NCBI GenBank assembly: GCA_964482225.1 | Contig: CAYZWT010000002.1 | Location: forward strand, 86,680 to 150,679 | Direction: 5' to 3' | Length of the DNA stretch: 64,000 nt | Origin: an uncultured Anaerolineales bacterium | GTDB taxonomy: Bacteria > Chloroflexota > Anaerolineae > UBA1429 | In this document: one piece after another, positions 3,262 to 38,750 of the stretch | Layout: each line of letters starts with the position of its first letter | Position numbering within the stretch: position 1 is the first letter of the stretch | Translations under genes and position numbers: made by a program | Notes under the pieces: model-generated | Seen by the model: only the letters and a program-made list of their open reading frames with translations | Databases searched by the model: none | Told to the model about the DNA's origin: nothing

Positions 3262-5335
3262 GGGTCTTGTCCTCCAGGCGCGCCCGCGCCTTGGCTGATC
3301 CCGAGGTCATCGGCTCGTGCAGGTCGCCCAGGCCCAGGTCGTCCATGCGTTCGCGCGTGGGCACGCCCGTCTCCACATCCCAGCCGAACAGGCGATAGTA
3401 CTCGTCCATCACGGGCCGAAAGGCCTGGCGATCCAGGGCCTGCTTTTCGCCCAGCAGGGGGTTCACCCAGTTCTCCTCATAGTCGAAGGCAGGCAGCACG
3501 CTCTCGTCCATCTGGCGGTCACGGCCCCAGTGTCGCACGCACAGGGCCCGCTCCAGGGTATAGATGCGCTCGGCGGCGCGGTCAAAGTCGGCCTCTCGCC
3601 AGTCCACGCCCGTCCCCAGTCGGAAGAGGTGGCAATCCACCGAGGGGCCCTCGACTAGACCCAGTTCGCCGGGGCCCTGCACGCGAAAGTAGCGGTCGTC
3701 GGTGGTGACGCTATAGATCAGCGGGAACACCTGATCGTCGGTGGGCAGCGAGTCCTTCATCACCGAGCGCCGGTCGTGGTAGAACGCCGGATACGCTTTG
3801 GCCTGGTAGCCGCTGTGGGGGTCCAGGGCCTCGGGCGTGCCATACACCTGCTGGCTGATGCCGCGAATCTGCTCCCAGGAGATGGGCGGCTTGTCCTTGT
3901 GCATCGGGTTCAGGGGGCTCCAGCGCATAATGTTCTGGACATAACCGTGGCTGCTGCTATAGGGGTCGCGGGTATCGGTGGACCATTGTAGCGCCGAGAC
4001 CAGCCAGTAGGGATAGACCAGGTGGTTGGCCCAGCAGGCGTGGCCGTCCCAATGGCCGCCAAAGCCCCAACCGGTGTAGCAGCGCGGAAGCAGGGCGGTG
4101 GCAAGGCCGAGCCGGTGAGCGGCGCGCACGCCCCCCTCGGCCAGCGTGTCGCCGATCCCCTCGCGATAGGCGATGGCGTGCAACAGGTGCGCCCAAAACT
4201 CAGAGTTGCGCCAGTCTATTGCCATGCCATTGATCTCGGAGATCAGGCCGGCCCGCCGGGCGCGCTCCAGCCAGGGCGCCATGCCGATGATCAGCTCCCA
4301 CTGGTTGAGCCCGTAGCGGTTGCTGAGCACGTTCAGCTCTAGGCCGCCGTAATCGCCCATCTGCCAGTCGTACAGGCCGTCGTGGCCGATGGGGCCGCCC
4401 TCGGGCATGCCGCGAAAGAGCGTGCCCACGCACACCCAATGCCCCTCCCAGGTGCGTTCGGGATAAGCGACGCCGGGCATGCCGCTATAGTAGCGGTTGC
4501 AGGGCGTGGGGCAGGCGGCGGTGCAGGCATACGGGCGCACGCGCCCGCCCCGGTTGCACGCCAGGGCCTCATTCTGGGCCTTGAGGTCGGGCACCGGGCG
4601 GTAGGCGCGGATCTCGCCCGCCACCGCCTGCAAGAGGCCATCCAGAAGCTCGGGCTCGGCCACGGGCACTTTGCCGCTGCCCTGCACCGAGATCGCCTTG
4701 AGCCTCTTTGCGCCCATGACGGCCCCAAAGCCGCCCTGGCCCGCCGTGGAGGAGGTGCCGGTGTGGATGGTGGCGATGCGGCTGAGGCGCTCGCCCGCCG
4801 GGCCGATGCACAGGGTGCGCAGCCCTTGGCCCAGGTCGCGCTCAATGGCCTCCTGGGTATCAAAGCTATCCAATCCCCACAGATCATCGGCGGGCGCGAT
4901 GGCAACCACGTCATCCCGAATGATGATCTGCACGGGCGTGTCGCTGGCGCCGGTGACCACCAGGCCGTCGTAACCGGCGCGCTTGAGCTCGGAGCCCCAG
5001 TGGTGGCCGATGTTGGCGCGGGTGTACCAGTTGTAGGGGTATGCCTGGGGGCTGAACCCACAGATGCTCGTGCGCCCCGAGTAGGGCGAGCGGGTGCCCG
5101 TCAGCGCTCCGGTGACGATGATCAGCGGGCTGGCGGGGTCAAAAGGGTCCACCGGCTCGGGACAGTCGTCCCAGGCGATGCGGGCGGCGACGCCGCGCCC
5201 CCCGATATAGTCAGGGATATAGCGCTCCAAGGGCTCGACCGAGAGGCGGGCATCGGAGAGGTCAATACGCAAAAGACGATTGGACCACCCAAAGCGCGGG
5301 GCAAAGCGAGGCATAGTGGCGGTGACGGGCTTCAT
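3248..5335 (-). CDS. Aldehyde:ferredoxin oxidoreductase family protein (tungsten/molybdopterin AOR type)
   Basis: Shares the AOR-family N-terminal motif (LLRIDLS...YIGGRGVAARI) over about 695 aa. Start reassigned to the ATG preceded by GGAGGAT. The 3' end overlaps the M23 gene by 14 nt. Confidence 0.7.
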   Translation of the reverse strand: MKPVTATMPRFAPRFGWSNRLLRIDLSDARLSVEPLERYIPDYIGGRGVAARIAWDDCPEPVDPFDPASPLIIVTGALTGTRSPYSGRTSICGFSPQAYPYNWYTRANIGHHWGSELKRAGYDGLVVTGASDTPVQIIIRDDVVAIAPADDLWGLDSFDTQEAIERDLGQGLRTLCIGPAGERLSRIATIHTGTSSTAGQGGFGAVMGAKRLKAISVQGSGKVPVAEPELLDGLLQAVAGEIRAYRPVPDLKAQNEALACNRGGRVRPYACTAACPTPCNRYYSGMPGVAYPERTWEGHWVCVGTLFRGMPEGGPIGHDGLYDWQMGDYGGLELNVLSNRYGLNQWELIIGMAPWLERARRAGLISEINGMAIDWRNSEFWAHLLHAIAYREGIGDTLAEGGVRAAHRLGLATALLPRCYTGWGFGGHWDGHACWANHLVYPYWLVSALQWSTDTRDPYSSSHGYVQNIMRWSPLNPMHKDKPPISWEQIRGISQQVYGTPEALDPHSGYQAKAYPAFYHDRRSVMKDSLPTDDQVFPLIYSVTTDDRYFRVQGPGELGLVEGPSVDCHLFRLGTGVDWREADFDRAAERIYTLERALCVRHWGRDRQMDESVLPAFDYEENWVNPLLGEKQALDRQAFRPVMDEYYRLFGWDVETGVPTRERMDDLGLGDLHEPMTSGSAKARARLEDKTRVRS

Positions 5336-5434
5336 GATCCTCCCTGTGGGTGCGCCAAGCAGATAACTGTGCGATCGCATGGCCCCGATTATGGCGGTTC
5401 TGGCCCGCAGCGTCAACTGTGCGCCCTGCCCCCC

Positions 5435-9995: not shown

Positions 9996-11324
9996 TTACA
10001 GATTGATGGTGACAAGATGTCCGGCTGCGGGCGCCGGATGAGCGACAAAGGCTTGTGCGCCCGGCTGTGAGCGCGCCACCTGCGCGGCGAGTTCCTCCGC
10101 AGACGGGGCGTGTGCCAGGGCGATGGCGCAGCCGCCCCAGCCCGCGCCCGTGAGCCGCGCCCCGACCACGCCCGGGAACCGGCTCGCCAACGCGACCAGG
10201 GCGTCCAGGCGTGGGGTGCTGATCGCCAAGTCGTCGCGTGCGCTGGCGTGAGCGGCGGCCATCAGGCGCCCCAAGGTGTCCAAATCGCCGGATTGCATGG
10301 CGCGCACCGCTGCCAGCACCCGGGCATTCTCAGTGATGACATGGCGGCAACGGCGCCGCACCTGCAAGCTGTCCGCTTGCGGCGGAGCGCCCCCCTCGAT
10401 CAGTTCGTCCAAGGCAATGCCCCGTTCTCTGAGGTCGGCCAAGCTCATGCACTCGGGCAAGTCCTCGACATACTCGTTCCAGGGCATTCCTTCCATATCC
10501 CGCAACGAGCGTATGCCCGGATACCGCTCCTGCAGCATCCGCACCCCCAGCCGCACCTCGGCCACCAGCTGGTTGAACAGGGGGCCCGTGTTGCGGTGCC
10601 GCTCGCCGCTATCCATGACCACCAAGCGGTGTTCGCTGGGGAGGGGTGCATGGGCTGTATGGTAGCGCCCATGCTCCGGCCTGCAATCCACAAAGAGCGC
10701 ATGGCCCCGGCGGGAGAGCAGCGCCGCGAACTGATCCATGATGCCGCCCCGGGTGCCCGCATACCACTCGGCCTGGCTGCAGAATACCGCCAGCTCTGCC
10801 CCTGCCAGGGGCAGCTCATTGACATGCACCAGGGCCAGGGCAAAGGCCACGGTCAGAGCCGATGACGACGAGAGGCCGGCCCCCCGTGGCACGCCCCAGG
10901 GGGGACGGCCGCACACCAAGGCATCCAGGCCGCGCAGGGGGCGCCCCGTCCGGCGCGCCAATAGCTCGGCCGGTCCCTGGGCATAGTTGCCCCAATCGCC
11001 CAGCGGTTGGGGCGGGATGGCCGGCCCGATGGCAAAGGCGCGCTCGGGGTAGGGGGCCTCCATGTTGGCCAGCCGCACCTGGGCATCGGAGCGGGGCCGC
11101 GCCAAGAGCAGGATGTCGCGATCCAGGGCCACAGGCAGCACATAGCCCTGGCTATAGTCGGTGTGCTCGCCGATCAGGTTGACGCGGCCAGGCGCGCGAA
11201 ACAAAGAGACCGGCCCGGGGCCATAGTGGGCCGAGAAGGCAGCCAGCGCGTCCTGGCAGCGGCGCGCCTGGCCGTCCACTCGATGCCCCTCTGAGCCGTA
11301 TACGTCCTGGATGATCGTCCGCAT
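9996..11324 (-). CDS. galK: Galactokinase (GHMP kinase)
   Basis: PGRVNLIGEHTDY motif. GHMP motifs GLSSSSA and GAGWGG. Start set at MRTII with a GGAGAAG RBS; the tool's ORF had an 81-aa extension. Confidence 0.85.
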   Translation of the reverse strand: MRTIIQDVYGSEGHRVDGQARRCQDALAAFSAHYGPGPVSLFRAPGRVNLIGEHTDYSQGYVLPVALDRDILLLARPRSDAQVRLANMEAPYPERAFAIGPAIPPQPLGDWGNYAQGPAELLARRTGRPLRGLDALVCGRPPWGVPRGAGLSSSSALTVAFALALVHVNELPLAGAELAVFCSQAEWYAGTRGGIMDQFAALLSRRGHALFVDCRPEHGRYHTAHAPLPSEHRLVVMDSGERHRNTGPLFNQLVAEVRLGVRMLQERYPGIRSLRDMEGMPWNEYVEDLPECMSLADLRERGIALDELIEGGAPPQADSLQVRRRCRHVITENARVLAAVRAMQSGDLDTLGRLMAAAHASARDDLAISTPRLDALVALASRFPGVVGARLTGAGWGGCAIALAHAPSAEELAAQVARSQPGAQAFVAHPAPAAGHLVTINL

Positions 11325-11663
11325 CACTTCTCCTCTGGCCGCAATGGTTGCCAGTATACCGGCATTGTGCGAGCGACACAACCTGCCCGCGAAAAGCGAG
11401 CGGATGTCTGGACACTGATCTGTCAAGATGCGGGGCGTTGGGCTGCATGGGCCTGGCGCATCAGACGACGCCCCGCGCCCGCGTTCGCCGAGCAACGCAC
11501 GGCGCTTCCGGAAGTGCCCCCATCCCCTGATATGCGTGCATAGGCTCCAGGGCAATGCCAAAGTCAAGATTATGTATGGTAGCGCGGAGGCAGAGTTGAT
11601 CTCCGACTCGCCGCAGCGCCCTCATCCCCCAGAATACACGAATAGAGCGCTCGAAAATGGACA

Positions 11664-20742: not shown

Positions 20743-23700
20743 CTACACCCACCCGCACAGCGTCTCGACATACTCGGCGGAACCGTCTCGCGCCCAGGTA
20801 TCCAACTGGTCCGGCTCTTTGAGTTGCTGGCCCCGCCTATTGGGCACCGCGACATAGATCCCGCGCCATTCGGGTAGGGCCGTCATATCTCCCCAAAGCT
20901 TTTCGTACTGGGCTACCGGATAGACATCCTCCTGCCCATGCCCCCAGCGCTTTTTGACCTCTTTGAGGGTCACATAGGTTGGCACCCGCCGCGCCATGCG
21001 CCGAACAGCTTGTTCCACGGCATCTGCATCGGCGATGGAGACGCGATCCAAACCGAACAGGGCCAAAAGATCGTCAATCCGCATCCAAAAAGTGTTCGAG
21101 TTGTAATAAGTCAGGCCGAACTCGTCCTCTTCGCGGGGCAGAGCCAGCCCCTCCAGCAGGCGCAAACGCCCGTTCACGCGAGCCAGGCCGCCGCCCCGAT
21201 CCTGCACCCGGCGCGCCACCACCTCGACCGCCATAGGCGCGTCCTGCTCCAAGAGATAGCCCAGCAAGGTCGGATCGAGCCCTGCGCCCAGCGTGTCTAT
21301 ATTGTGCATCATCAGATAGCGCAGCCCCGGCCGCTCCTGCAAAAGCCGCTGCAACACGCCGCTGCGGAGCAGGTTGGGCGCCTCGTACCAATGGCCCACC
21401 GGGTTCATACACTGTAGCGGGACGTTGTCGGTATAGTCAGAGCCCTGGCCCATTCCCTCGGCCCAGGCGATCAGCGCGGCGTGCAAGCTCTCGCGCACCT
21501 TCTGGGCCTGCTCATCCAGGAGTTGCTGTGATAGCTCCTCCCAGGCAAAGCGCAGGTCGCGGGCCATGGGCACCATGCGCAGACCGACGGCGCGCCCCTG
21601 GCTGAGGTACAGCGGCCCGTTGTAGCCATAGTTACCCTGTTCGGCCAGGTGCGCCGCGATGGGTCCGTGGGTCAGATAGCTGGTGGTGATGACGTGAGGC
21701 ACCGGCGCGCCCGCCTGTTGGGCGGTGCGTTGGCTCTTGGCCAAGTGTACCTCTATGAACGAACGATGGCGCCCGCCCAGCCGCGCGAACGGGTTGAGCG
21801 CCTTGACCACGCCGGCCCCCTGGGTCCAACGGCTGCCGACGCCGCCCGCCAGGCTAACCACGGCCACCTCTCCGGCCTGCAATGCCTGGAGCCCTCGCCG
21901 GTATACTGTGCCGTCCCGCTCCTCGGGGAGCCGATGCACATCCTCCGGCGCCACATCGCGAATGTCCGTCGAGACGGGCAAACGGTTCTGGGCCAACCCG
22001 ATCAGGCCGGCGCGCAGCTCGCGGCGGATCTGCTCGTGCTGCTGGCGATCAAAGCCACTCTGCAAGAGCAGGGCCTCCAAGTCGCCCTCGCCCTCGCGGG
22101 CCGCTTCGGCTTGGGGCAGCAGTGCATCGAACAGGGCCTGCACCGTGCCGCCTAGGGCGGGGTTGGTGCGGCAGGCGGCGGCAAAGCGATCCAACTCGGC
22201 GCGCCGGCTGGCCGCGAGTTCATGGCGGCTCTGACGCAGCAGGGGTGGAACCACCAGCGTATAGTATTCCGCCGGCAGCAGAGCCTCGGAGCCCAGAGCG
22301 AGCTGCGCTACACTGCCCTGCTCGTTGATGGCAAAGTCGTACACCACCGGCTCCATGGCAAAGGGCAGAGCGTGCTGTAGGCGGCCCTTTTCCTCGGACA
22401 TGGCCCGCAGCAGGTATTCCTGGGCATGGGCCTTGGCCTCGGGCGACACGATGAACCCCATGCCCCCGCCCGACATGCCGCCGAGCATCCAAAAGCCCCA
22501 GAAGGCAGGGCCAAACTCGCCTTTGGCGCGCGCAATGAGCGCCTCGACATACAGGTTGCTGGCCCAGGGGATGATCGTCTGGATCGGCCCGTAAAAGTTG
22601 CGCGTGGTGGCATCGGCGATCTGGCGCACATTGCCCTTCTGTAGCAGACGCAGCACGTCATCCAGGATAGCGCCCGCTTGGCGGCGCGCCACCCAGGCGG
22701 CGGGCGAGCGCAGCAGGTATCGCTCGGTCACCATCTCTAGGATGGGCCCCACGTTCTGGGCCATGCCGCCGTGCACCAGCACCAGGCTATCCTGCAGGGC
22801 CTGGCGTGTCTGCTGAGAGACCTGCTCGCGATCCAGGATACGGTGCTCTGGCAGCAGCCTTCCCCGGCTGATGCCGTGCTCGGGATCGCCCAAAGCGGCC
22901 TGTACGCCATAGATCAACTTGATGCCCGGCCAGACGCCGCCGGAATCCTGCCAGCCTCCGCCGGAGCCGCCCAGCCACTCGCCCAGGATCGCCCTGGCGG
23001 CCACCTGGCGGCGCTCGTGCTCCTGCAACGTGCCACTCAGGCTGCCGATCTGGCGTGTGGCCCGCATCAAGGCGGCGATCATGGCGGCCAGCAGCGTGGT
23101 CGAGACGGCCAAGCGCGAGCCCTTGGGGATGCCGCGCACATGGCTCACCACCTCCAACCCACGCCCCGGGCCCACCAGGCGCTCCAGCAGGTCCGATAGG
23201 GGCTGCTGCGCACCCTCGATGCCGGGCGGCACGATCCCTGCCGCGATCAGCGCCGCCTTGAGCAAGCCGAGATAGTCGCGTGCCAGGTCGAATACCTCGG
23301 CAATGCTGTGGATCTCGGTCTGGGCCCCCAGGTCCACGCTGACCAGGCGGATGAGCGGCTCATCGATGACGCGCACGTGGGCGGCGACCGGCGGCCTGGG
23401 CGCGGCATCGCGGCCGCGCACGGCCAGGTCAATGGAGACGTTGATCACCCGCGCGCCCTCGGGATAGTCCATGCCCAGGAAAAAGATGTCGCTCCAGCCG
23501 CTGTGGGTCAGATCCATGCGCACGGGCGTGCTCTCGGTGAGCAGAGGATAGAGCCCCGTCGCGGGGTCGCGGCGGGCCAGCTCGGGCGCAATGCGCAAGG
23601 GATGGTCGGCGGGGTGGCCCATGCGGAACATCCAGCGGTTGCCGGAAAAAGAGAGCACGCTGTGGCGCACCTGGTCGGCCAGGGTCTGGAAGCCAAGCTG

Positions 23701-24069
23701 GTAATAAGCCAGGGCCAGGGCGCTGGCCAGCGCCTCGGAGGGACCGTCGGCGGCCTGGGCGCTCAGCAGCGCGTCAATGGCCTCGTCAAAGCGGCGCTCG
23801 AGCAGGTGGGTGTAGCCGGTGTAGGGGATGTGGCCTTCAGGGCGCAGTTCACGGCGCAGTGGCAGGTGAAAGCGATAGAGGGCATACAAGAAGGTGGTGG
23901 CGCGCACCCGCTCGAACAGGTTGGGGGCGTTGCGGCGAAAGGCGTCCAGCGCGGCGCACTCGGCCAGCAGCGCGGCCAGGTCGCGCCCGGCGCAGGCCTG
24001 CTCCAGCGAGAGGTTGCGCACATCGGGGTCAGCGGAGGTGATGATCTGCTGCAGTGGCATGGTGTGCAT
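20743..24069 (-). CDS. Bifunctional fusion: N-terminal GHMP-family sugar kinase-like domain plus C-terminal UDPGP-type (eukaryote-like) sugar-1-phosphate uridylyltransferase domain
   Basis: N-terminal half carries GHMP-like motifs (GIPKGSRLAVSTTLLAA, ~GLGSSAA; FWMLGGMSGGGMGFIV, ~GAGGGG). C-terminal half carries UDPGP family blocks (VVSLAGGVGSRW, ~LNGGLGT; MMHNIDTLGA; YYNSNTFW, ~FNTNNLW). 4-nt gap to the upstream GalU-like gene. Confidence 0.6.
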   Translation of the reverse strand: MHTMPLQQIITSADPDVRNLSLEQACAGRDLAALLAECAALDAFRRNAPNLFERVRATTFLYALYRFHLPLRRELRPEGHIPYTGYTHLLERRFDEAIDALLSAQAADGPSEALASALALAYYQLGFQTLADQVRHSVLSFSGNRWMFRMGHPADHPLRIAPELARRDPATGLYPLLTESTPVRMDLTHSGWSDIFFLGMDYPEGARVINVSIDLAVRGRDAAPRPPVAAHVRVIDEPLIRLVSVDLGAQTEIHSIAEVFDLARDYLGLLKAALIAAGIVPPGIEGAQQPLSDLLERLVGPGRGLEVVSHVRGIPKGSRLAVSTTLLAAMIAALMRATRQIGSLSGTLQEHERRQVAARAILGEWLGGSGGGWQDSGGVWPGIKLIYGVQAALGDPEHGISRGRLLPEHRILDREQVSQQTRQALQDSLVLVHGGMAQNVGPILEMVTERYLLRSPAAWVARRQAGAILDDVLRLLQKGNVRQIADATTRNFYGPIQTIIPWASNLYVEALIARAKGEFGPAFWGFWMLGGMSGGGMGFIVSPEAKAHAQEYLLRAMSEEKGRLQHALPFAMEPVVYDFAINEQGSVAQLALGSEALLPAEYYTLVVPPLLRQSRHELAASRRAELDRFAAACRTNPALGGTVQALFDALLPQAEAAREGEGDLEALLLQSGFDRQQHEQIRRELRAGLIGLAQNRLPVSTDIRDVAPEDVHRLPEERDGTVYRRGLQALQAGEVAVVSLAGGVGSRWTQGAGVVKALNPFARLGGRHRSFIEVHLAKSQRTAQQAGAPVPHVITTSYLTHGPIAAHLAEQGNYGYNGPLYLSQGRAVGLRMVPMARDLRFAWEELSQQLLDEQAQKVRESLHAALIAWAEGMGQGSDYTDNVPLQCMNPVGHWYEAPNLLRSGVLQRLLQERPGLRYLMMHNIDTLGAGLDPTLLGYLLEQDAPMAVEVVARRVQDRGGGLARVNGRLRLLEGLALPREEDEFGLTYYNSNTFWMRIDDLLALFGLDRVSIADADAVEQAVRRMARRVPTYVTLKEVKKRWGHGQEDVYPVAQYEKLWGDMTALPEWRGIYVAVPNRRGQQLKEPDQLDTWARDGSAEYVETLCGWV

Positions 24070-24073
24070 GGCG

Positions 24074-24922
24074 TCAGCCTCGATCCAGCTCGCGCTGGGC
24101 CAGCAGTTCCAGCAGGTGGCTCAGCACCGTTTCGCGGTCCTGGCCGGCCAGCGCCAGCGCTACCTGCGCCATCAGGATGCCATAGCGCACGCCCACGTCG
24201 TAGCGGCGCCCCCGGCTCTCCAGCGCCAGATAGCGTTCGCGATGAGCCAGCTCGTCCAGGGCATCAGAGAGCGTTACGGCCTCGCGCTGCGCCTCTAGCC
24301 GCGCGCCCAGGATCTCGAGCACCATAGGCGTGAGCACGTGCATCCCGAAAAAGCAGAGATAGTGCCCCGCTCTCAAGCCAGAGATCACCAGCCATTGCTC
24401 GGCCTCGGTGGGCGTGGGTTTCTCCATCACCCGCTCGACGGTATAGAGGCGGCTGCTGCCCGAGACGCGCTTGCCGCCGATGCAGCCAAAGTAGGGCAGC
24501 AGGCTCTCGCGCGAGGGGGTGACGGCCGAGATGGCGCAGGCGTTGCGCTCGGCGGCCTGCACCAGGTCTTGGGCGCACCCGGTCTCGGTATGGGAGATCG
24601 GCAGGTGGTCGCTGACGAGATGCAGAAAGGGTTCTTGCCCCACAAACTCGCGGGCGCAATAGACCGCGTGCCCATAGCCCAACGGCTCGGCCTGCGGGAC
24701 AAAGGTGAGGCGGTTGGCATAGGCGCCCACGGCCTCGGCATAGGCGCGCTCGTCGCCCGGGCAGATCACGACGCAGACCTGCTCGATGCCGGCGCGCAAA
24801 GCCTCTTCGACCAGGATGGTCAGCACGGGCTTTTCCTGGCCATCGGAATCTATCAGGGTTTGCAGCGGCAAGGTACGCTGTCTTCGCCCTGCTGCCGTGA
24901 TGACAGCCTTGGTAATCTGCAT
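24074..24922 (-). CDS. Sugar-1-phosphate nucleotidyltransferase (GalU/UDP-glucose pyrophosphorylase-like)
   Basis: [19 protein letters not shown] matches the GalU-type KAVIPAAGLGTR N-terminus. AAGGAG RBS. Start moved to the internal Met. Confidence 0.7.
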
Positions 24923-25042
24923 GGGCCGCTCCTTGTCCGTATCTGCCATAGGGCTGTGACAGGCTGCATTGTAGGCCACCGGGGCCGGGCAGGCAAGCGA
25001 TTGGATGGGACGGACGGAGGCCAGGCGTTGGCTCTCCCCCCT

Positions 25043-31682: not shown

Positions 31683-31711
31683 TTGACGCAGCGCCGGGTA
31701 AGTGGTATCAT
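31683..31711 (+). promoter_or_regulatory. Sigma70-like promoter: TTGACG, 17-nt spacer, TATCAT, at the head of the glycan cluster
   Basis: Read from the sequence, about 60 nt upstream of the dehydrogenase ATG (31774). Confidence 0.5.
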
Positions 31712-31773: not shown

Positions 31774-33117
31774 ATGACATATACAGATAGCGGCGGGGCG
31801 GGCCATTGGCAGGCGCTGCGCGAACGCATTGATGCGCGCACGGCGCGGATCGCCGTGATGGGCCTCGGCTACGTGGGACTGCCGTTGGCGTTGGCCCTGG
31901 CCGAGGCGGGTTTTGCCGTCACCGGCGTTGACCCTGATGTGGCCAAGTGCGACGCCGTCAACCGGGGTGAGAGCTATGTCGGCGACGTGCCGGGGGCGTG
32001 CGTGGCAGCCCAGGTGGCAGCCGGGCGCCTGCTGGCCGATCCGACGCCTGCGCCCTTGGCCCAGGCCGACGTGGTCATCATCTGCGTCCCGACGCCCCTC
32101 AGCAAGGGCAAAGACCCCGACATTTCGTACATCGTCAAGGCGGCGGACGGCCTCAGCGGCGCCATGCACGCGGGCATGCTGGTCGTGCTAGAGAGCACGA
32201 CCTACCCAGGCACCACAGAAGAGATCCTGCTGCCCCGGGTCGGGCAGAACGGCTTTGCCGTGGGGCAGGATGTCTTTGTGGCCTTTTCGCCCGAGCGCGT
32301 GGATCCGGGCAACAAGACGTACACGATCCGCAACACACCCAAAGTGGTGGGCGGCGTCACGCCGGCCTGCCTCGATCTGGCCCTGGCCCTCTATGCCGCC
32401 ATCGTTGAGCGTACGGTGCCCGTCTCCAGCCCAGCGACCGCCGAGATGGTCAAGATCCTGGAGAACACCTATCGCGCCATCAACATCGGGCTGGTCAACG
32501 AGATGGCACAGATCTGCCACCGCATTGGGCTGGATATCTGGGAGGTGATCGCCGCTGCCAGCACCAAGCCCTTTGGCTATGCGCCTTTCTATCCGGGGCC
32601 GGGCCTGGGCGGCCACTGCATCCCCATTGACCCGCTGTACCTCACCTGGAAGATGCGCGCCCTGAGCGTGCAGACGCGCTTTATCGAGCTGGCCGACGTT
32701 GTCAACGCCGAGATGCCGCGCTATGTGGTACAGCGGGTGCAGGATGCTCTGAACGATGACGCCAAGCCGCTGCGCGGTAGCCGCATCCTGGTGCTGGGCG
32801 TGACGTACAAGCCCGACGTGGCCGATCTGCGCGAGAGCCCTGCGCTCACAGTGATGGACCTGCTGCTGGAGCGGGGCGCACTGGTGAGCTACCACGATCC
32901 CTACATAGAGCGCCTCGCGCTGCCGGAAGCAGGCGTCCTGGCGGGCGTGGCGCTGACCGACGAGGCCCTCGCGGCGGCGGATTGTGTCCTGATCCATACG
33001 GCCCACGCGGGCTATGATTGGGCGCGCGTGGCAGCGCACGCCCGAACGATCTTTGACACGCGCAACGCCATAGAAACCGCCACGTATGATGGAAGCGCGC
33101 GACTCTACCGGCTCTGA
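31774..33117 (+). CDS. Nucleotide-sugar dehydrogenase (UDP-glucose / UDP-N-acetylmannosamine dehydrogenase family)
   Basis: [29 protein letters not shown] is the NAD-binding Rossmann N-terminus. Catalytic-domain GGHCIP-like block present. C-terminal UDP-binding domain. Start moved to MTYTD. Confidence 0.8.
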
Positions 33118-33859
33118 GGCCGCCCGTATCACGGGGGGCGTAGGGCTCTATCTGCGACGCCAGGCCGATGGCCTGACACGCTACATGCTGGAGCAGACGG
33201 CGCAGACCCTGTTCGGCTGGGCGCCCACTCTGGTGGGCATCGCGCTGCGGGCCGTGGCCTATCGCGCCATTATGCGCATGGAAGGCAGCGTTGCCATTGA
33301 ACGGGGGGTGCGCCTGCGCTTTGCCAGCCACATCCGGCTGGGGCGGGGCGTGTATCTCGACGAAGGCGTCTACATCCACGCCTGCCCGCAAGGGGTGCGC
33401 ATCGGCGCGGGCAGTCTGGTGATGCACGGCAGCATACTGCACACGTACAACTTTCGCGACCTGCCCCATGCGTTCATCCATATCGGGCGCGATAGCCTGA
33501 TTGGCGAGTACAATGTGATCCGGGGACAGGGCGGTGTGACCATCGGCGACCGGGTGTACACCTCGCCCCTGGTGCAGATCATGGCCGTCAATCACGTGTT
33601 TGACGATCCGGCGCGCCCGTTTGTGGCCCAGGGCCTCACCGCCGAGGGGATCGTGATCGAGGATGACGTCTGGATCGGCTCCGGCGCGGTGATCACCGAT
33701 GGCGTACGCATCGGGCAAGGGGCAGTGGTTGCGGCAGGGGCCGTTGTCACCCAGGACGTGCCGCCTCATACGCTGGTGGGCGGCGTGCCCGCCCGCGCGC
33801 TGCGCCAGATCGACGGCAGCGACCATGTGCGGGGCAAGCAGGTGTATCTGAATCAGTAG
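33086..33859 (+). CDS. Left-handed beta-helix (hexapeptide repeat) sugar O-/N-acetyltransferase
   Basis: Hexapeptide repeats (IGDRVYTS..., [31 protein letters not shown]). Overlaps the upstream dehydrogenase by 32 nt. Confidence 0.7.
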
Positions 33860-33889: not shown

Positions 33890-35140
33890 ATGGCCACGAT
33901 GGAACGCGTTATACAGCGAGGCGCCGATACGGCGGCCCGGCACCTGCTCTCGGTGGTGATCCCCGCCCTGGACGAAGAGGACGGCATCGCCGCCATCATC
34001 GAGCGGGTGCTGGCTGTGGCCCCGGCCTTGGCCGAAATGGGCGTGGGGCTGGAGCTTGTGGTAGTGGACGATGGATCGAGCGATGGCACGTGCGACGTGG
34101 TGGCCCGCTATGCTGCCGCCCGTCTGGTGCGCCACGGCTGCAATCGTGGCTACGGGGCCGCCCTCAAGACCGGCTTTGCCGCCGCCCAGGGCGATTGGCT
34201 GGCCTTTTTGGATGCCGATGGCACCTATCCCCCCGAGCACTTTCCGACCCTATGCCGTGCGTTGGAGGAGGGCGACGGGGCAGATCTCGTGGTAGGCTCG
34301 CGGCGCTCGGGGGCGGCTAGCGAGATGCCGTTCATGCGTCGGGTGGGCAATCTGCTTTGGTCCAGCATGGTCACCCTGCTGGGGAACCGCCGCGTGGTGG
34401 ACCCCGCCAGCGGGATGCGCGTCTTTCGTCGAGAGGCCCTGGAGCGGCTCTATCCCCTGCCCGATGGCCTCAACTTTACGCCGGTGATGAGCACACGGGC
34501 CATCCACGAGGGCGTGCGCCTGAGTGAGATCCCGATCCCCTACCAGGAGCGCCAGGGGCGCTCCAAGCTTAGGGTGGTACAGGATGGCATGCGCTTTTTG
34601 CGCACCATCGTCTGGACCGTCATGGCCTACAATCCTGCGCGCTTGTTTGGAGGGCTGGGCTTTGGCCTGTTCATCGTGGGCGCCCTGATCGGCCTGATCC
34701 TGGTGGCGTTGCGTCTGGCGGGCGTCACGACCTTGGGGCCCCTGGGTGTGGCGGGCGCATACCTGGCTGCTCTTGGCCTCGTGGTTGGCTTTGATCTCTT
34801 TGCCCTGGGGGCCACGTTCAACTATCTGGTGGCCCTTTTTCACACGCGCCCGGTGCAACGTGGGCTCTTTGGCAAGCCGATCTTTGACCCGCCCCTCGAT
34901 CGCCAGTTCTGGTGGATGGGGCTGCTGGCGGGGGTGGGCGGCCTGGGGTTGGGGCTCATGAGCCTGATCCTGGGGGCCAACGGCTGGCCCATCGAGCGCC
35001 TCTGGTTCTATCTGTTGGCGGGCACGATGTTGCTGATCCTGGGCATGCACCTGCTGATCTTTTGGGTCATCATGCGCGTGCTGGAGGAGCTGAGCCAGCG
35101 CGGAGAGTTGACGCGCGCCGATCTCGAGTGTGGTCCATGA
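33890..35140 (+). CDS. Family 2 glycosyltransferase with C-terminal multi-TM anchor (polyprenyl-phosphate sugar synthase-like, DPM1/GtrB/ArnC type)
   Basis: LSVVIPALDEE...VVDDGSSDGT...DADG are GT2 DxD-type motifs. Four C-terminal hydrophobic helices. GAGGAG RBS. Confidence 0.8.
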   Translation: MATMERVIQRGADTAARHLLSVVIPALDEEDGIAAIIERVLAVAPALAEMGVGLELVVVDDGSSDGTCDVVARYAAARLVRHGCNRGYGAALKTGFAAAQGDWLAFLDADGTYPPEHFPTLCRALEEGDGADLVVGSRRSGAASEMPFMRRVGNLLWSSMVTLLGNRRVVDPASGMRVFRREALERLYPLPDGLNFTPVMSTRAIHEGVRLSEIPIPYQERQGRSKLRVVQDGMRFLRTIVWTVMAYNPARLFGGLGFGLFIVGALIGLILVALRLAGVTTLGPLGVAGAYLAALGLVVGFDLFALGATFNYLVALFHTRPVQRGLFGKPIFDPPLDRQFWWMGLLAGVGGLGLGLMSLILGANGWPIERLWFYLLAGTMLLILGMHLLIFWVIMRVLEELSQRGELTRADLECGP

Positions 35141-36798
35141 GCGAGGCGGATGTGGGAGATAACCGGGGCGCGCGCACGCTCCAGCGGGTATGGGCCGAGG
35201 CGCCGCCGCGCGCCGATACGGGCGATCTGCTGGGCGCCCCACGCGGCCCCGAGGCGGTGGACGTCCTTTTCGCCAACCCGCCCGCCCCTGATGGCGGCAT
35301 CTGGATCCGTAGCCAGCACCGGGTGGGGCGGCGTTCGCGCGAGGGCATGATCTGGCCCCAGGCCGATTTGGCCCAGATGGCGGCCCTGTTCCCCGAGCGG
35401 CGCGTCGCCGTGGTGGATGCCATCGCCGAGCGCATGTCCTGGCGCGCTTTTGAGGCGCTGCTGGACCGGCTGCAGCCCCGCTACTATGTCACCCAGGCGA
35501 CGGCGCCCACACTCCAGAACGATATGTACGGGGCGTTCCTGGCCCGGGCGCGCGGGGCCGCCACCATCGCTTTTGGCACCCATGTGACCCCTATGCCCGT
35601 CGGCACCCTGGAAACCTATCCCGCGCTGGATTATGTGCTGTGCGGCGAGCCCGAGCTGACCCTGCGCGAACTGGTGGATGCGTTGGATGCCGAGAGCGAG
35701 CCGTGGGGCGCCTTGGAGCGGGCCGATCCGGCGCTGGCTGAGGCTCTGGCGCGGCTCTTTCGCCAGGCGGATCCCGCGTGGGAGCCGGCGGGGAGCGCTG
35801 CGCCCAACGAGCGGCTGGCGCGCATCACGGGGCTGGCCTGGCGGCGCGCGGGCGAGGTCACGCTCAACGCGCCCCGCGCGCTCATCTGCGACCTGGATGC
35901 CCTGCCGTTGCCCCGCCACGACCTGTTGCCGCTGCGCTGCTATCGCGCGCCCCTGGTCAAGGGCCCCTATGCCTTTGTGGTCACCAGCCGGGGGTGCCCG
36001 GGGGCGTGTCGCTTTTGCATCAAACACGTCTCGTATGGGCGCTCGGTGCGTTTCCGCTCGCCGGAGCACATCCTGGACGAGATCGAGCAGTTGGTGGGCC
36101 TGGGCGCGCGCAGCATCCACATGTACGCCGACCTGTTCACCATCAACCGCGAGCATGTCATGGGCATTTGCCAGGGGTTGCTGGAGCGCAACCTGCGGGT
36201 GCGCTGGACCTGCAACAGCCGGGTGGATTTCGTGGATCGTGAGATGCTGGCGCTGATGGCGCGGAGCGGTTGCTGGATGATCTCATGGGGCATTGAATCG
36301 GGCGATGAGGACATGCTGCGGCGTATGCAAAAGGGCATCCGTCTGGAGAGCATCCACCGGGCGCTGGCCTGGGCGCGCCAGGCAGGCATTCGCAACTGGG
36401 GCTATTTCATCATCGGCCTGCCCGGCGAGACCGTCGCCAGCATCCGGCGCACCATCGCGCTGGCCAAGGCGCTGCCGCTGGACCTGGCGTTGTTTCATAT
36501 CGCCGCGCCGCACCCTGGCACGCCCTTTTTCTTTGAGGTGGTGGAGAACGGCTGGTTCCGCCCCGGCACCCGCTGGGAAGAGGTGGATATGGACCGCTCC
36601 ACCGTGCTGGATTACCCGGATCTGCCCGCGGAGGAACTGGAGCGCTGGTCGCAGCGCGCCTTGCGTGCGTGGGCGTTGCGCCCCGGCCCCATGTGGACCT
36701 ACGCCAAGATGCTGCTGGGCAGCCCCAGCCTGTGGCGCGCTGCCCTGGAGATCGGCTGGGAGAGCTTGGGCTGGCTGCGAGGGACCGGGGCTCGATGA
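35137..36798 (+). CDS. B12-binding (class B) radical SAM enzyme
   Basis: N-terminal cobalamin-binding Rossmann-like domain, then CPGACRFC (CxxxCxxC) and a radical SAM core. The ATG overlaps the GT2 TGA (ATGA) and its own TGA overlaps the next ATG. Confidence 0.75.
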   Translation: MSEADVGDNRGARTLQRVWAEAPPRADTGDLLGAPRGPEAVDVLFANPPAPDGGIWIRSQHRVGRRSREGMIWPQADLAQMAALFPERRVAVVDAIAERMSWRAFEALLDRLQPRYYVTQATAPTLQNDMYGAFLARARGAATIAFGTHVTPMPVGTLETYPALDYVLCGEPELTLRELVDALDAESEPWGALERADPALAEALARLFRQADPAWEPAGSAAPNERLARITGLAWRRAGEVTLNAPRALICDLDALPLPRHDLLPLRCYRAPLVKGPYAFVVTSRGCPGACRFCIKHVSYGRSVRFRSPEHILDEIEQLVGLGARSIHMYADLFTINREHVMGICQGLLERNLRVRWTCNSRVDFVDREMLALMARSGCWMISWGIESGDEDMLRRMQKGIRLESIHRALAWARQAGIRNWGYFIIGLPGETVASIRRTIALAKALPLDLALFHIAAPHPGTPFFFEVVENGWFRPGTRWEEVDMDRSTVLDYPDLPAEELERWSQRALRAWALRPGPMWTYAKMLLGSPSLWRAALEIGWESLGWLRGTGAR

Positions 36799-38750
36799 CC
36801 AAGCGCGCGGCTTACGGCGGCGTTCGCACGCTATTCCCCTATCTCGAACTGGGCCTTGCGCTGGCTGCTGCGGCGCTGTGGTATAGCACCGGCGGCGCCG
36901 TGTGGTTCCGTGAGACGGCCATTGGCCTGTGGCCTGTCGCGCTGGTGGCAGCCCTCTGGCCGTTGCACTGGGGCGCGCGCAAGCGTCGCCATGTGTCCGG
37001 GCGGGCCGGCTACACCCTGTGGTTGGCCCTGTTTCTGCTGTCGGCCGGGGCCTCTGTGTGGGCCGCCTATGACCGGCAGATCGCCCTGGCCAAGTTCGGC
37101 CTGATCCTCGGGGCAGTGGGGCTGGCGGCGGCGCTGGCCCATCAGCCCACACGGCGCCATCTCTATGTCGCTCTGGGGGTGCTGGCGGCGGTGGCGGCCT
37201 GCCTGGGCGCGTTCTTTATCTTGACCAATGACTGGGCCGCACAGCCCGTCAAAGTGCCGCTGCTTTCGCGCCTGGGGGTCGCGCTCTCATCTGCGCTCCC
37301 CGACCTGCGCGGCCATCGCATCACGCCCAATGTCGTGGGCGGCATGTTGGCTGCATTGCTGCCTCTTGCCGTGGCCCTGGTGAGCCTCCGTCCTCGCGCC
37401 TGGTTGGGGAGCGCCCTGGGGCGTTGGGCCAGGGCGATGCGGGCCATGTGGGCCAGCGCTGCGGCTGTGGCAACGCTGGCTTTCTTGCTGAGCGTGTCGC
37501 GGGGCGCCTGGTTGGGCCTGGGCGCGGGCGCGCTGCTCTGGGGGTTGTGGCGTTGGGTCGCAGGCGAGCCGGTCAGAGAGCCGGAGGGCTGGCGCCGCCA
37601 GGTGATCGCCGGCGGTTTGCTCTGCGCTGCACTGGCCCTGGCCGCCCTGCTGGCGGGCTATGCGCTGCTTACCCTGGGGTTACCGGGCGCAGATGCGCTG
37701 GCCGGTAGGCTGGCCCTCTGGCGCGATGGCTTGCTCCTCGCGCAAGACTATGCCTATACGGGTGTGGGGATGGGCCTCTTTTCGACCCCTTTTTCAGTTT
37801 ATACCCTCTTGATCCACGTAGGGTACATCGTCTATAGCCACAATATGTGGATCGACATTCTGGCGGAGCAGGGCGTATTCGGTGTGGCAGCCCTGGCGCT
37901 GCTCATGGGGACTGCTGTGGCAGGCTTTGTCCGCTGGCGACGGGTCGCCAGCAAGGGGCTGGGCCGTGTGATGGAGGCCTGCCTGGTCTCCATCGTCGCC
38001 ATGACGGTTCATGGCATGTTTGACAATGTGCTGTATGGCAGCCGGGGCGTGCTGATCCTGTTCACGCCCTATGGTATTATGATGGCGGCGACAGCGCTGG
38101 CTGCGCGTGAGGGCGCGCACAAGGGGGAGCAAATGCGGCGGCAAGGGGCGGCCCTGGCCTGGCTAGGTCCGCCGGCCGTGGTCATCGTGGCCCTGTTGGC
38201 GATCAGCCTGGGGCGGCCGGCGGCTGCTTGGCACGCCAATCTGGGGGCCGTGGCCCAAACCCAGGCCGAGCTGCAGGTCTATGACCCGCTGCACTTTGAT
38301 AACCCAGACCTGGATCAGGTGCGCAAGCAAGTGGACCTGGCCGATGCGCAGACCCGGCTGGAACGGGCCGCGCGCTGGCCTGGCCACCCAACGGCCCGGC
38401 GTCGCCTGGCAGCCATCGCCTTGGCCCAGGGGGACTATGAGCGGGCGTTGGCCTTGATGCAGGTCGCCTGGGATGCGGGGCGCCGCGATGCGCCCACGCG
38501 CCTGCTCTATGGCGACGCTCTGGTCGCCAATGGCTATGTGGCCGAGGCGGCGCGGGTGATTGCCGGGCTTGCATGGGCGGCGCCCCGGTTGGAAGGACAG
38601 GCATGGTCGCGGTACTGGGTGCATGAGGACTGGGAGCGGGCGGCCTATGCCTATGAGGCCGTGGCTCTGTTGCAGCCCGGGCAGGGCGGCGCCGAGCAAC
38701 GCGCCGCCGATGCCAGACGCCGCGCGGGGCTGCCCCCGCTGGAGCCATAA
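36795..38750 (+). CDS. Wzy_C / O-antigen ligase-family polytopic membrane protein with C-terminal TPR-like repeat domain
   Basis: About 10 TM helices. Wzy_C signature (YSHNMWIDILAEQGVFG). C-terminal region of about 200 aa of helical TPR-like repeats (LAAIALAQGDYERALALMQVAWDAG...). Confidence 0.7.
   Translation: MTKRAAYGGVRTLFPYLELGLALAAAALWYSTGGAVWFRETAIGLWPVALVAALWPLHWGARKRRHVSGRAGYTLWLALFLLSAGASVWAAYDRQIALAKFGLILGAVGLAAALAHQPTRRHLYVALGVLAAVAACLGAFFILTNDWAAQPVKVPLLSRLGVALSSALPDLRGHRITPNVVGGMLAALLPLAVALVSLRPRAWLGSALGRWARAMRAMWASAAAVATLAFLLSVSRGAWLGLGAGALLWGLWRWVAGEPVREPEGWRRQVIAGGLLCAALALAALLAGYALLTLGLPGADALAGRLALWRDGLLLAQDYAYTGVGMGLFSTPFSVYTLLIHVGYIVYSHNMWIDILAEQGVFGVAALALLMGTAVAGFVRWRRVASKGLGRVMEACLVSIVAMTVHGMFDNVLYGSRGVLILFTPYGIMMAATALAAREGAHKGEQMRRQGAALAWLGPPAVVIVALLAISLGRPAAAWHANLGAVAQTQAELQVYDPLHFDNPDLDQVRKQVDLADAQTRLERAARWPGHPTARRRLAAIALAQGDYERALALMQVAWDAGRRDAPTRLLYGDALVANGYVAEAARVIAGLAWAAPRLEGQAWSRYWVHEDWERAAYAYEAVALLQPGQGGAEQRAADARRRAGLPPLEP

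Follow-up and report, generated by a model that had tools for sequence, protein, structure and literature searches.

We suggest that the radical SAM (rSAM) enzyme encoded at 35137-36798 of the window, the whole 64-kb stretch of DNA analysed here, performs the radical tailoring step in a self-contained donor module for a lipid-linked sugar, a reading to which we assign a rough probability of 0.55. Its most likely role is to modify the lipid-linked sugar made by the adjacent GT2 glycosyltransferase, or the nucleotide precursor of that sugar, ahead of delivery to the cell surface. The tailoring role is proposed because linkage to the GT2 and to an LbH acetyltransferase is near-obligate across two phyla, with co-varying identities, and the sugar or lipid-sugar substrate because the nearest annotated or solved relatives (HpnJ and AprD4) act on such substrates. 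The gene anatomy, the distinctness of the enzyme from HpnJ, the conservation of the module and its polysaccharide-cluster context are established here. A literature search found no published description of an rSAM-GT2-acetyltransferase gene combination.

Gene organization of the locus

The following features were identified in the window.

31683-31711, + strand: sigma-70-like promoter match (TTGACG-17-TATCAT, with TG), a weak match to the consensus only, just 5' of the first gene of the operon
31774-33117, + strand: NDP-sugar dehydrogenase, UDP-ManNAc / UDP-GlcNAc 6-dehydrogenase-like (Pfam UDPG_MGDP_dh N, central and C domains)
33086-33859, + strand: LbH (hexapeptide) acyltransferase, maltose/galactoside O-acetyltransferase-like (Pfam Hexapep), core member of the module
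33890-35140, + strand: predicted GT2 polyprenyl-phosphate sugar synthase, ArnC / DPMS / AglJ-like (Pfam GT2), core member of the module
35137-36798, + strand: radical SAM enzyme of class-B architecture, 553 aa (motif, Pfam, NCBIfam, PDB, AlphaFold and Foldseek evidence)
35263-35685, + strand: N-terminal Rossmann, B12-binding-like domain, residues 43-183 of the enzyme (AlphaFold secondary structure and invariant columns)
35689-35826, + strand: family-specific helical insertion, approximately residues 185-230, joining the Rossmann domain to the rSAM barrel (alignment)
35995-36018, + strand: CxxxCxxC [4Fe-4S]/SAM motif CPGACRFC, residues 287-294 (C287, C291 and C294), invariant in the family
36795-38750, + strand: putative WaaL/PglL-type ligase (Pfam Wzy_C and TPR_19) with about 10 TM helices and a C-terminal TPR domain
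38790-43013, + strand: surface protein, 1407 aa (Pfam BNR_2 and LysM), with BNR/sialidase-like propellers and a C-terminal TM anchor

The initial annotation placed the rSAM gene between the GT2 and Wzy_C genes by ATGA overlaps on both sides, and both were confirmed, at 35137-35140 and 36795-36798. Read from the sequence, the rSAM ATG at 35137 lies within cc-ATGA-gc, with the GT2 TGA at 35138-35140, and the rSAM TGA (36796-36798) lies within cg-ATGA-cc, with the Wzy_C gene ATG at 36795. Public contigs carry identical gene calls of 553, 416 and 651 aa. Such overlaps are an ordinary operon feature and by themselves unremarkable. The Rfam scan of the window detected no cobalamin riboswitch and no other RNA.

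The dehydrogenase exceeds the TIGR03026 cut-off (423.6 bits) and is an accessory gene, located upstream of the module in loci L004-L008 only, the closest relatives. The dehydrogenase and an MR_MLE gene were considered as core members of the module and rejected, each being confined to the 5-8 closest loci.

The radical SAM enzyme and its N-terminal domain

The product of 35137-36798 belongs to the radical SAM superfamily, as demonstrated by the CxxxCxxC motif and by Pfam Radical_SAM (PF04055, 90.1 bits against a gathering score of 29.5). The CPGACRFC cluster is intact, as first annotated, and the barrel was modelled with high confidence by AlphaFold. In the Rossmann domain we detected an invariant long loop, NPPxPD...WIRSQHRVGRRSREG (residues 47-70), together with G147-x-H149 following strand 4 and G170-E171-P-E173 preceding helix 5. 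The model places helices at 189-196 and 198-211 of the insertion, which is without counterpart in relatives of about 470 aa. A GT2-rSAM fusion was sought among the long relatives; these are tandem rSAM/B12 (and SPASM) fusions, and a GT2 fusion is absent from them.

Among curated families, HpnJ (TIGR03471) is the top NCBIfam match, with 196.7 bits (E 6.7e-58) against a cut-off of 577.6, and the alignment spans only residues 225-542 against model positions 140-462, leaving the N-terminal domain unaligned. Close relatives score 100-270 bits with the same model, and the best HpnJ E-value among the 100 nearest 50%-identity representatives is 8.3e-109, while a match at cut-off level is expected to be far lower. 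HpnJ orthology was rejected on score, alignment span and context. The RiPP enzyme ApyD is the second-best NCBIfam match; the AprD4 family (NF033070) scores 121.4 bits, below its cut-off of 500, and BchE (TIGR02026) 127.9 bits, below its cut-off of 481.

An intact B12 domain had been annotated at the N-terminus, and this claim stands in part. AlphaFold predicts a five-stranded Rossmann fold for residues 43-183. The base-off cobalamin motifs have been described as Gly(-Gly) on strand 4 and Gly-Glu at the start of helix 5 (PMC9204698). Within the family there is no variation at G147, which directly follows strand 4 (142-146), or at G170-E171, which precede helix 5 (172-183), and among the 100 nearest representatives G147, H149, E171 and E173 reach at least 90% conservation. 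Both the Gly and the Gly-Glu motifs are thus retained. The first Gly of the Gly-Gly motif is Phe in this enzyme, and the Gly-x-Ser-x-Leu position reads Q-A-T-A-P. Pfam B12-binding (PF02310) reaches only 15.2 bits in the query (E 0.02, residues 75-179), below the cut-off of 32.1. The same model was matched at E<=1 by all 54 family members tested, the best at 4.5e-8.

Cobalamin dependence itself, which had also been proposed, is unproven, the closest solved structure being the cobalamin-free AprD4. Full-length Foldseek matches include TsrM, OxsB, TokK and CysS as well as AprD4. AprD4 has been reported not to bind cobalamin, so a class-B-like architecture can be cobalamin-free. The family-profile search of solved structures with the N-terminal domain was restricted in its alignment to the rSAM half, and cobalamin-contact residues are therefore not transferable from a solved enzyme. 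No sequence criterion dividing methylases from non-methylases was found.

A conserved acetyltransferase-GT2-rSAM module

We examined 80 related loci from Chloroflexota and Acidobacteriota, using as denominators, where stated, the loci with room for the gene in question. The conserved unit has the order sugar O-acetyltransferase-like LbH, ArnC/DPMS-like polyprenyl-phosphate GT2, rSAM. The GT2 gene is directly upstream of the rSAM gene in 71 of 73 related loci in the two phyla, and the identities of the two proteins co-vary (Spearman 0.71), which bears out the original proposal that the enzyme is tied to a lipid-carrier GT2 in an envelope-glycan setting. The acetyltransferase is located upstream in 64 of the 67 loci with room, and among solved structures it comes closest to hexapeptide, galactoside and maltose O-acetyltransferases. 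This member of the conserved core was missed by the initial annotation.

The GT2 (PF00535, 106 bits) has ArnC as its best match in the PDB (E 7e-23 across residues 15-319), with DPMS and GtrB next, and about four C-terminal TM helices are predicted at residues 256-398. With a GT-A domain and TM helices homologous to those of solved members, it is predicted to be of the polyprenyl-phosphate glycosyltransferase type. Its best NCBIfam matches (AglJ, Dol-P-hexose transferase and ArnC) are all under their cut-offs, AglJ scoring 125.6 against 325; falling below every equivalog cut-off, the GT2 represents a separate subfamily.

The rSAM family spans 56-83% identity across the two phyla, the top database clusters (at least 120) are all at least 63% identical, and 132 matches were found in a collection with one genome per species (185,579 species). 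A relative with 54% identity (P0122) has the same trio, adjoining a Wzm/Wzt ABC transporter. No GT2 was found near a relative with 46% identity (P0125); hence not all relatives share the linkage. Outside the family, P0128 and P0133 are encoded beside a GT2 and LPG_synthase_TM, P0140 has a 4-bp overlap with a GT2, P0137 is beside a deacetylase and DegT, and P0134 is also beside GT2 or sugar-tailoring genes.

The trio loci are surface-polysaccharide clusters. Their neighbours include PGT, Wzc, NusG-like, GT4, Wzm/Wzt, small EamA, PMT_2 GT-C and heptose-pathway-like genes, with EamA-type genes (about 125 aa) in only 9 loci and PMT_2 GT-C genes in only 11.

The putative downstream ligase and surface protein

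The gene directly downstream of the rSAM gene encodes a Wzy_C domain protein (PF04932, 52.6 bits against a cut-off of 31.7) with TPR repeats. Conservation is complete at R236 and R305 and at least 90% at H349-N350-x9-G360, and the spacing of the R/R/H triad resembles that of E. coli WaaL (R215/R288/H338). WaaL (7tpg) is the sole significant fold match in the PDB (Foldseek E 1e-4). The Wzy_C domain and the triad suggest that this protein is a WaaL/PglL-like ligase. A Wzy_C-type gene directly follows the rSAM gene in 41 of 64 loci; at about two thirds of the loci, it was rejected as an invariant partner.

The 1407-aa protein encoded next has an N-terminal hydrophobic segment that looks signal-sequence-like by eye from the translation, and it is a candidate acceptor or partner of the ligase. 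Such a surface protein follows the TPR-ligase in about 21 of the 26 loci with room. Across all 81 loci, detection of the BNR/LysM protein was limited to 28.

Proposed pathway

The homology of the GT2 suggests that it would move a sugar from a nucleotide sugar onto polyprenyl phosphate at the cytoplasmic face of the membrane, and the MAT/GAT-like LbH enzyme may then O-acetylate the loaded sugar. The soluble rSAM enzyme would cleave SAM at CPGACRFC, and the 5'-deoxyadenosyl radical would take a hydrogen from the lipid-linked sugar, a step suggested by the near-obligate linkage and by the precedents of HpnI/HpnJ, Cds and MoeK5. Cobalamin in the Rossmann domain would lead to C-methylation, its absence to a rearrangement, either an HpnJ/Cds-type ring contraction or an AprD4-type dehydration. 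Both HpnJ and Cds are described in reviews as contracting the ring of lipid-linked hexoses, and HpnJ, MoeK5 and Fom3 are reported to co-cluster in a similarity network.

The modified polyprenyl-phosphate sugar would then be flipped and used outside the membrane. In the window the likely user is the adjacent WaaL/PglL-like TPR ligase, with the adjacent BNR/LysM surface protein or a wall polymer as its possible target, while a PMT_2-type GT-C enzyme probably takes that role in Acidobacteriota. No recognisable flippase is encoded in the window. WaaL and PglL are known to use undecaprenyl-diphosphate glycans, whereas ArnC-type GT2 enzymes make monophosphate-linked sugars. Given this mismatch, and since no phosphoglycosyl transferase or second GT was detected in the 64-kb window, the hand-over to the ligase is unexplained in the proposed pathway.

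Alternative readings

The gene order is silent on whether the rSAM enzyme acts before or after transfer to the lipid. It may tailor a soluble nucleotide sugar (NDP-hexose, NDP-heptose or NDP-HexNAcA) prior to loading by the GT2, which we regard as rather unlikely, while keeping it in view. Fom3, DesII and AprD4 act on soluble activated or free sugars, the substrate of AprD4, the closest solved relative, being a soluble aminoglycoside sugar; the enzyme has no predicted TM helix, and dehydrogenase or HddA/GmhA/GmhB-like nucleotide-sugar genes adjoin the trio in many loci. However, these nucleotide-sugar enzymes vary by locus, whereas the invariant partner is a lipid-carrier GT2, and lipid-linked sugars are the substrates of HpnJ, which is the best family match, and of MoeK5, with which HpnJ reportedly clusters.

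It is improbable that the module makes the head group of a membrane glycolipid, for instance a cyclitol-like ring-contracted sugar on a non-hopanoid lipid, and no surface-glycan donor. The analogy to calditol or the BHT cyclitol ether, the position of HpnJ as the best-scoring family (HpnJ and Cds being proposed to ring-contract lipid-bound hexoses) and an operon without other GT or PGT genes are consistent with such a product. Nevertheless, the GT2 resembles polyprenyl-phosphate transferases in both its catalytic and TM parts, and the module lies within Wzy/Wzc-type or ABC-transporter-type polysaccharide clusters, with the WaaL-like ligase gene following in those 41 of 64 loci.

Modification of a protein or peptide (e.g., the adjacent surface protein) or of the polyprenyl chain, with mere co-location with the GT2, is very improbable: ApyD is the second-best family match and a large surface protein is encoded two genes downstream, but the BNR/LysM protein is sparsely distributed where the GT2 and the acetyltransferase are nearly always there, and the loci showed no RiPP genes and nothing resembling a precursor peptide.

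The equivalence of the GT2 and rSAM to the hopanoid side-chain pair HpnI/HpnJ, disfavoured from the start, is hardly credible in view of the 196.7 against 577.6 bits, the unaligned N-terminal domain, the polysaccharide genes around the module and the lack of an HpnI match for the GT2 in NCBIfam, even though HpnJ is the top match at E 6.7e-58. The check for hopanoid cyclase genes that had been proposed was run on the 64-kb window and detected no DxDD(T/S) motif in any frame, nor are there hpn genes among the subset of its genes that was annotated, the neighbours being sugar and housekeeping genes. Squalene-hopene cyclase (SHC) is reported to be highly conserved in Acidobacteriota, which carry the module, a point in favour of a hopanoid role. 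Against it, a survey found HpnG, HpnI and HpnJ domains confined to genomes that also have SHC and HpnH domains, and reports the cyclase to be less conserved in Chloroflexota.

Comparison with known systems

The tailoring of a lipid-linked sugar that we prefer is analogous to HpnI/HpnK/HpnJ, where a GT2 first attaches a hexosamine to a membrane lipid and the bound sugar is then remodelled by an rSAM enzyme of class-B type; an acetyl-handling enzyme is common to both systems. Unlike that pathway, the GT2 here is ArnC/DPMS-like, an acetyltransferase takes the place of the HpnK deacetylase, and the gene context is polysaccharide, not hopanoid.

Among solved structures, AprD4, the radical SAM 1,2-diol dehydratase of apramycin synthesis (PDB 6fd2), comes nearest in sequence (E 2.6e-34) as well as in fold, where Foldseek aligns both domains at E 8e-26 with a target-normalised TM of 0.76. 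It shares the Rossmann N-terminal domain and the rSAM barrel and acts on a sugar, but the identity is only 24% and the enzyme described here has the extra insertion of about 45 aa. AprD4 works with the reductase AprD3, whereas no reductase is conserved with the module.

In the Arn (ArnC-ArnD-ArnE/F-ArnT) and Gtr three-component systems there is likewise an ArnC-like GT2, and a polyprenyl-phosphate monosaccharide would here also be tailored on the lipid and used outside. The Arn flippase subunits ArnE/F are EamA-family proteins of about 125 aa, the family and size of the small membrane proteins in 9 of our loci, alongside the PMT_2 GT-C genes in 11. The tailoring differs, being by rSAM and acetyltransferase instead of a deformylase, and the candidate extracytoplasmic transferase of the window is WaaL-like, not GT-C.

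The cobalamin rSAM sugar C-methyltransferases MoeK5 and GenK, compared by description only, have the class-B architecture, and MoeK5 methylates a lipid-linked sugar; these enzymes serve antibiotic pathways, not envelope glycan clusters.

The putative ligase resembles WaaL/PglL in domain, triad (R236/R305/H349), spacing and fold, and it adjoins a candidate target surface protein, as do many pglL genes. It differs in its C-terminal TPR domain and in the lack of Und-PP-glycan assembly machinery in the window. To our knowledge, the host phylum is not known for LPS.

Significance

The rSAM enzymes with class-B architecture have been described in pathways to antibiotics, cofactors, chlorophyll and hopanoids. 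We found in the literature no described case of such an enzyme acting on a polyprenyl-phosphate sugar carrier of envelope glycan synthesis. Linkage to the same two partner enzymes makes the assay well defined, with three proteins, a lipid carrier, a nucleotide sugar and SAM.

A bolder and unlikely version of the proposal is that the radical chemistry on the polyprenyl-phosphate-linked sugar is unprecedented in envelope glycans and that the WaaL-like ligase attaches the product to a surface protein or wall polymer, using a monophosphate-linked monosaccharide donor. One possible chemistry would then be ring contraction, giving a carbocyclic unit of cyclitol type; another would be acetate-assisted deoxygenation or rearrangement. 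If true, both the building block and the type of donor used by the WaaL-like ligase family would be new, and widespread in Chloroflexota and Acidobacteriota.

Taken together, many Chloroflexota and Acidobacteriota probably build an undescribed, radically modified cell-surface sugar. If confirmed, the tailoring role would be a reaction new to lipid-linked glycan tailoring and would assign a first function within the large, unannotated radiation of HpnJ/BchE-like enzymes. An unusual surface sugar (C-methylated, deoxygenated or carbocyclic) would then be expected in uncultured Anaerolineae and Acidobacteriota, as a possible chemical marker for them.

Operon organization

We detected a tightly packed run of plus-strand genes between 31.7 and 43.0 kb of the window, facing a convergent peptidase gene:

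31774-33117 (+), NDP-sugar dehydrogenase
33086-33859 (+), hexapeptide (LbH) acetyltransferase
33890-35140 (+), GT2 glycosyltransferase
35137-36798 (+), radical SAM protein (rSAM), ATG to TGA, 553 aa
36795-38750 (+), Wzy_C membrane protein, the candidate TPR-type ligase
38790-43013 (+), BNR/LysM surface protein, 1407 aa
43083-46145 (-), C25 (gingipain-like) peptidase with Ig/fn3-like repeats, 1020 aa

The initial annotation had placed the rSAM gene between the GT2 and Wzy_C genes with ATGA overlaps on both sides, and the sequence and Pfam agree. Read directly, cc-ATGA-gc at 35137-35140 joins the GT2 stop to the rSAM start, and cg-ATGA-cc at 36795-36798 joins the rSAM stop to the Wzy_C start; such 4-bp overlaps are an ordinary operon feature and carry no special weight. 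On record, identical metagenomic contigs have all three genes called alike (416, 553 and 651 aa). The rSAM protein matches Pfam Radical_SAM at 90 bits, with CPGACRFC at residues 287-294; the upstream protein is a GT2 and the downstream one matches Wzy_C (52.6 bits, above the cut-off) and TPR.

Besides the module GT2, no GT, PGT, Wzx or Wzc gene was found in the 64 kb of the window, and the remaining annotated genes are housekeeping or sugar-activation genes. The following were also observed:

3248-5416 (-), aldehyde:ferredoxin oxidoreductase gene
9996-11567, galactokinase-like gene
20743-24979 (-), 1108-aa protein with a single Pfam match, to a UDPGP (UDP-sugar pyrophosphorylase) segment near the C-terminus, followed by a 301-aa NTP_transferase

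The UDPGP protein, the NTP_transferase and the galactokinase-like gene may form a sugar-activation route feeding the operon. Aldehyde:ferredoxin oxidoreductase suggests an anaerobic lifestyle; anaerobic digesters and sediments are the source of many related genomes. The BNR/LysM protein has a signal-sequence-like start, BNR/sialidase-like propellers, one LysM and, at the C-terminal end, a Pro/Thr-rich stretch and a TM anchor; it could be a glycosylation target. The position of the C25 peptidase is conserved in the closest related loci (L004, L005, L008).

Conserved neighbourhood

A scan of one genome per species gave 132 rSAM matches, with the window closest to Anaerolineales genomes. The best 80 of the 132 all come from metagenome-assembled genomes, 64 from Chloroflexota (Anaerolineae, Thermoflexales, Caldilineaceae, Ardenticatenaceae and others) and 16 from Acidobacteriota, as counted from record titles. 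These 80 loci were analyzed by tblastn with the window proteins, clustering of all ORFs and HMM searches.

The GT2 gene lies directly upstream of rSAM on the same strand in 71 of the 73 loci with room, one of the two exceptions being a mere permutation, and a hexapeptide acyltransferase precedes the GT2 in 64/67. The only clear exception to the trio is locus L011, with the acetyltransferase 139 bp upstream of rSAM and no GT2 detected between them. The rSAM and GT2 percent identities co-vary across loci (Spearman 0.71). A Wzy_C-type membrane protein directly follows rSAM in 41 of 64 loci. In about 21 of 26 loci the TPR-type ligase is in turn followed by the BNR/LysM protein; only the 5-8 closest loci add the dehydrogenase and an MR_MLE gene to the module.

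In their wider context the loci are surface-polysaccharide clusters, containing Bac_transf phosphoglycosyl transferase, Wzc-like kinase, NusG-like regulator, GT4 and GT2 enzymes, epimerases and aminotransferases. Small EamA proteins occur in 9 loci and PMT_2 GT-C enzymes in 11 Acidobacteriota loci. Heptose-pathway genes like HddA, GmhA and GmhB are present in about 20 loci, which hints that the sugar there may be a heptose; no nucleotidyltransferase was seen beside them in those loci. The HddA-like GHMP kinase, GmhA-like SIS isomerase and GmhB-like HAD phosphatase were observed directly beside the trio in L017, L029, L037, L041, L043, L046, L071, L073 and others, about 19-21 loci in all, with the phosphatase between GT2 and rSAM in L071 and L073.

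Partner enzymes and proposed pathway

By homology, the GT2 is a predicted polyprenyl-phosphate sugar synthase. Its closest solved relative is ArnC, with an alignment spanning residues 15-319 (E 7e-23), and DPMS and GtrB rank next; the best NCBIfam matches are AglJ, Dol-P-hexose transferase, ArnC and PpgS, and the C-terminal part carries about four TM helices. Galactoside/maltose O-acetyltransferases and WcaF are the nearest relatives of the acyltransferase. In the Wzy_C protein R236 and R305 are invariant and H349-N350-x9-G360 is conserved, and the R236/R305/H349 spacing matches the triads of WaaL (R215/R288/H338) and PglL (R224/R298/H349). A fold search with its model (pLDDT 92) gave one significant PDB match, WaaL 7tpg. 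The acidobacterial protein at the same position keeps an H-N-x9-G-x-x-G pattern.

The module is best read as Arn-like or HpnI/J-like in its logic. The GT2 would load polyprenyl phosphate with a sugar, which the acetyltransferase and rSAM would tailor at the cytoplasmic face, and the product would be used outside the membrane: in the window by the candidate WaaL-like TPR ligase, perhaps on the adjacent surface protein, and in Acidobacteriota by a PMT_2-type enzyme. We give a lipid-linked rSAM substrate, as initially proposed, a probability of about 0.55; a nucleotide sugar as the substrate is unlikely. WaaL and PglL use diphosphate-linked glycans, whereas a GT2 of this type makes monophosphate-linked sugars, a mismatch at the step from GT2 to ligase.

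Putative cobalamin-binding domain and nearest relatives of rSAM

AprD4 ranks first among solved relatives of rSAM in the sequence search (E 2.6e-34) and again in the fold search (Foldseek E 8e-26, target-normalised TM 0.76), where both domains align; the true cobalamin enzymes TsrM, MgmA, OxsB, TokK and CysS come after it in the Foldseek ranking. AprD4, a sugar 1,2-diol dehydratase, was reported not to bind cobalamin. The rSAM architecture is of class B type, and cobalamin use is plausible.

The B12 domain had been called intact, which holds for the predicted fold and two motifs and not for the Pfam B12-binding score (15.2 bits, E 0.02, residues 75-179), sub-threshold against a cut-off of 32.1. 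All 54 family members tested match this model at E<=1 (best 4.5e-8). In the AlphaFold model (pLDDT 81, pTM 0.83), residues 43-183 form a five-stranded Rossmann domain, which a helical insertion at ~185-230 separates from the rSAM barrel. Base-off cobalamin motifs typical of class B are a Gly on strand 4 and a Gly-Glu at the start of helix 5 (PMC9204698). The rSAM counterparts, G147 (followed by H149) and G170-E171, do not vary within the family. Across the 100 nearest 50%-identity representatives, conservation reaches at least 90% for G147, H149, E171 and E173; the Gly-x-Ser-x-Leu position does not keep that sequence in the alignment. Three further cysteines, C345, C359 and C379 (nt about 36169-36273), are invariant in the family and align with AprD4 cysteines; for C345 and C379, conservation among the 100 nearest relatives also reaches at least 90%.

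No curated NCBIfam model covers the rSAM family. HpnJ is the top curated match, but its 196.7 bits lie far under the cut-off of 577.6 and the alignment begins only at model position 140; relatives at 36-71% identity likewise fall far short. Only six of the 100 nearest representatives match HpnJ at E<=1e-90, the best (8.3e-109) still falling below the cut-off as judged by comparison with the other scores and E-values. The module GT2 had no HpnI match in the curated-family search, and the DxDD(T/S) cyclase motif is absent from every frame of the 64-kb window. On score, alignment span and the gene context within the window, we rejected HpnJ orthology; a hopanoid HpnI/HpnJ scenario, already disfavoured in the initial annotation, is very improbable. 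In a survey of hopanoid genes, HpnG, HpnI and HpnJ domains were confined to genomes that had those of SHC and HpnH as well, and SHC was less conserved in Chloroflexota.

The commonest class B reaction is cobalamin-dependent C-methylation, for which MoeK5 provides a precedent with a lipid-linked sugar. Closest to rSAM, however, are non-methylases: HpnJ and Cds, proposed as sugar ring contractors, and AprD4, which dehydrates. Under either substrate, lipid-linked or nucleotide sugar, the reaction may be a methylation or a rearrangement.

Family extent and diverged relatives

Exhaustive search of 1.8 billion cluster representatives detected one tight rSAM family (top match 846 bits), a few diverged full-length members at 360-520 bits, and then, levelling off near 270 bits, HpnJ/BchE-like proteins of roughly 470 aa without the helical insertion.

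Five of the seven relatives sampled outside the family adjoin GT2 genes, so GT2 pairing is a recurring theme of this rSAM branch, as with HpnI/HpnJ. P0122 (54% identical) has the full trio beside a Wzm/Wzt ABC transporter and several GTs; P0128 and P0133 adjoin a GT2 and an LPG_synthase_TM protein; P0134 lies amid several GT2 genes; and at P0140 a GT2 gene overlaps by 4 bp. P0137 adjoins a polysaccharide deacetylase and a DegT aminotransferase, and P0125 lacks a nearby GT2.

Loci L089, L090 and L091 represent the P0128/P0133 sister clade, the nearest one without the insertion, and also carry a class-I methyltransferase beside the GT2 and LPG_synthase_TM genes; the latter Pfam family is the flippase-type domain of MprF. 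The full-length homologues P0123 and P0127 (41-46% identical; loci L086 and L088) lack CxxxCxxC, having NRSCPIDHEDSIK and NRGYPAIPNNEVH there, and retain the N-domain loop and C-terminal parts; they may be catalytically dead paralogues. P0141 (2279 aa), P0228, P0235 and other long relatives are giant proteins built from tandem B12-binding/radical SAM units, between two and five per protein, and some include a SPASM domain.

No description of the acetyltransferase-GT2-rSAM combination was found in the literature searched. Both kinds of system to which it belongs are known: sugar tailoring by class-B-type rSAM enzymes, and decoration modules built on lipid-linked monosaccharides.
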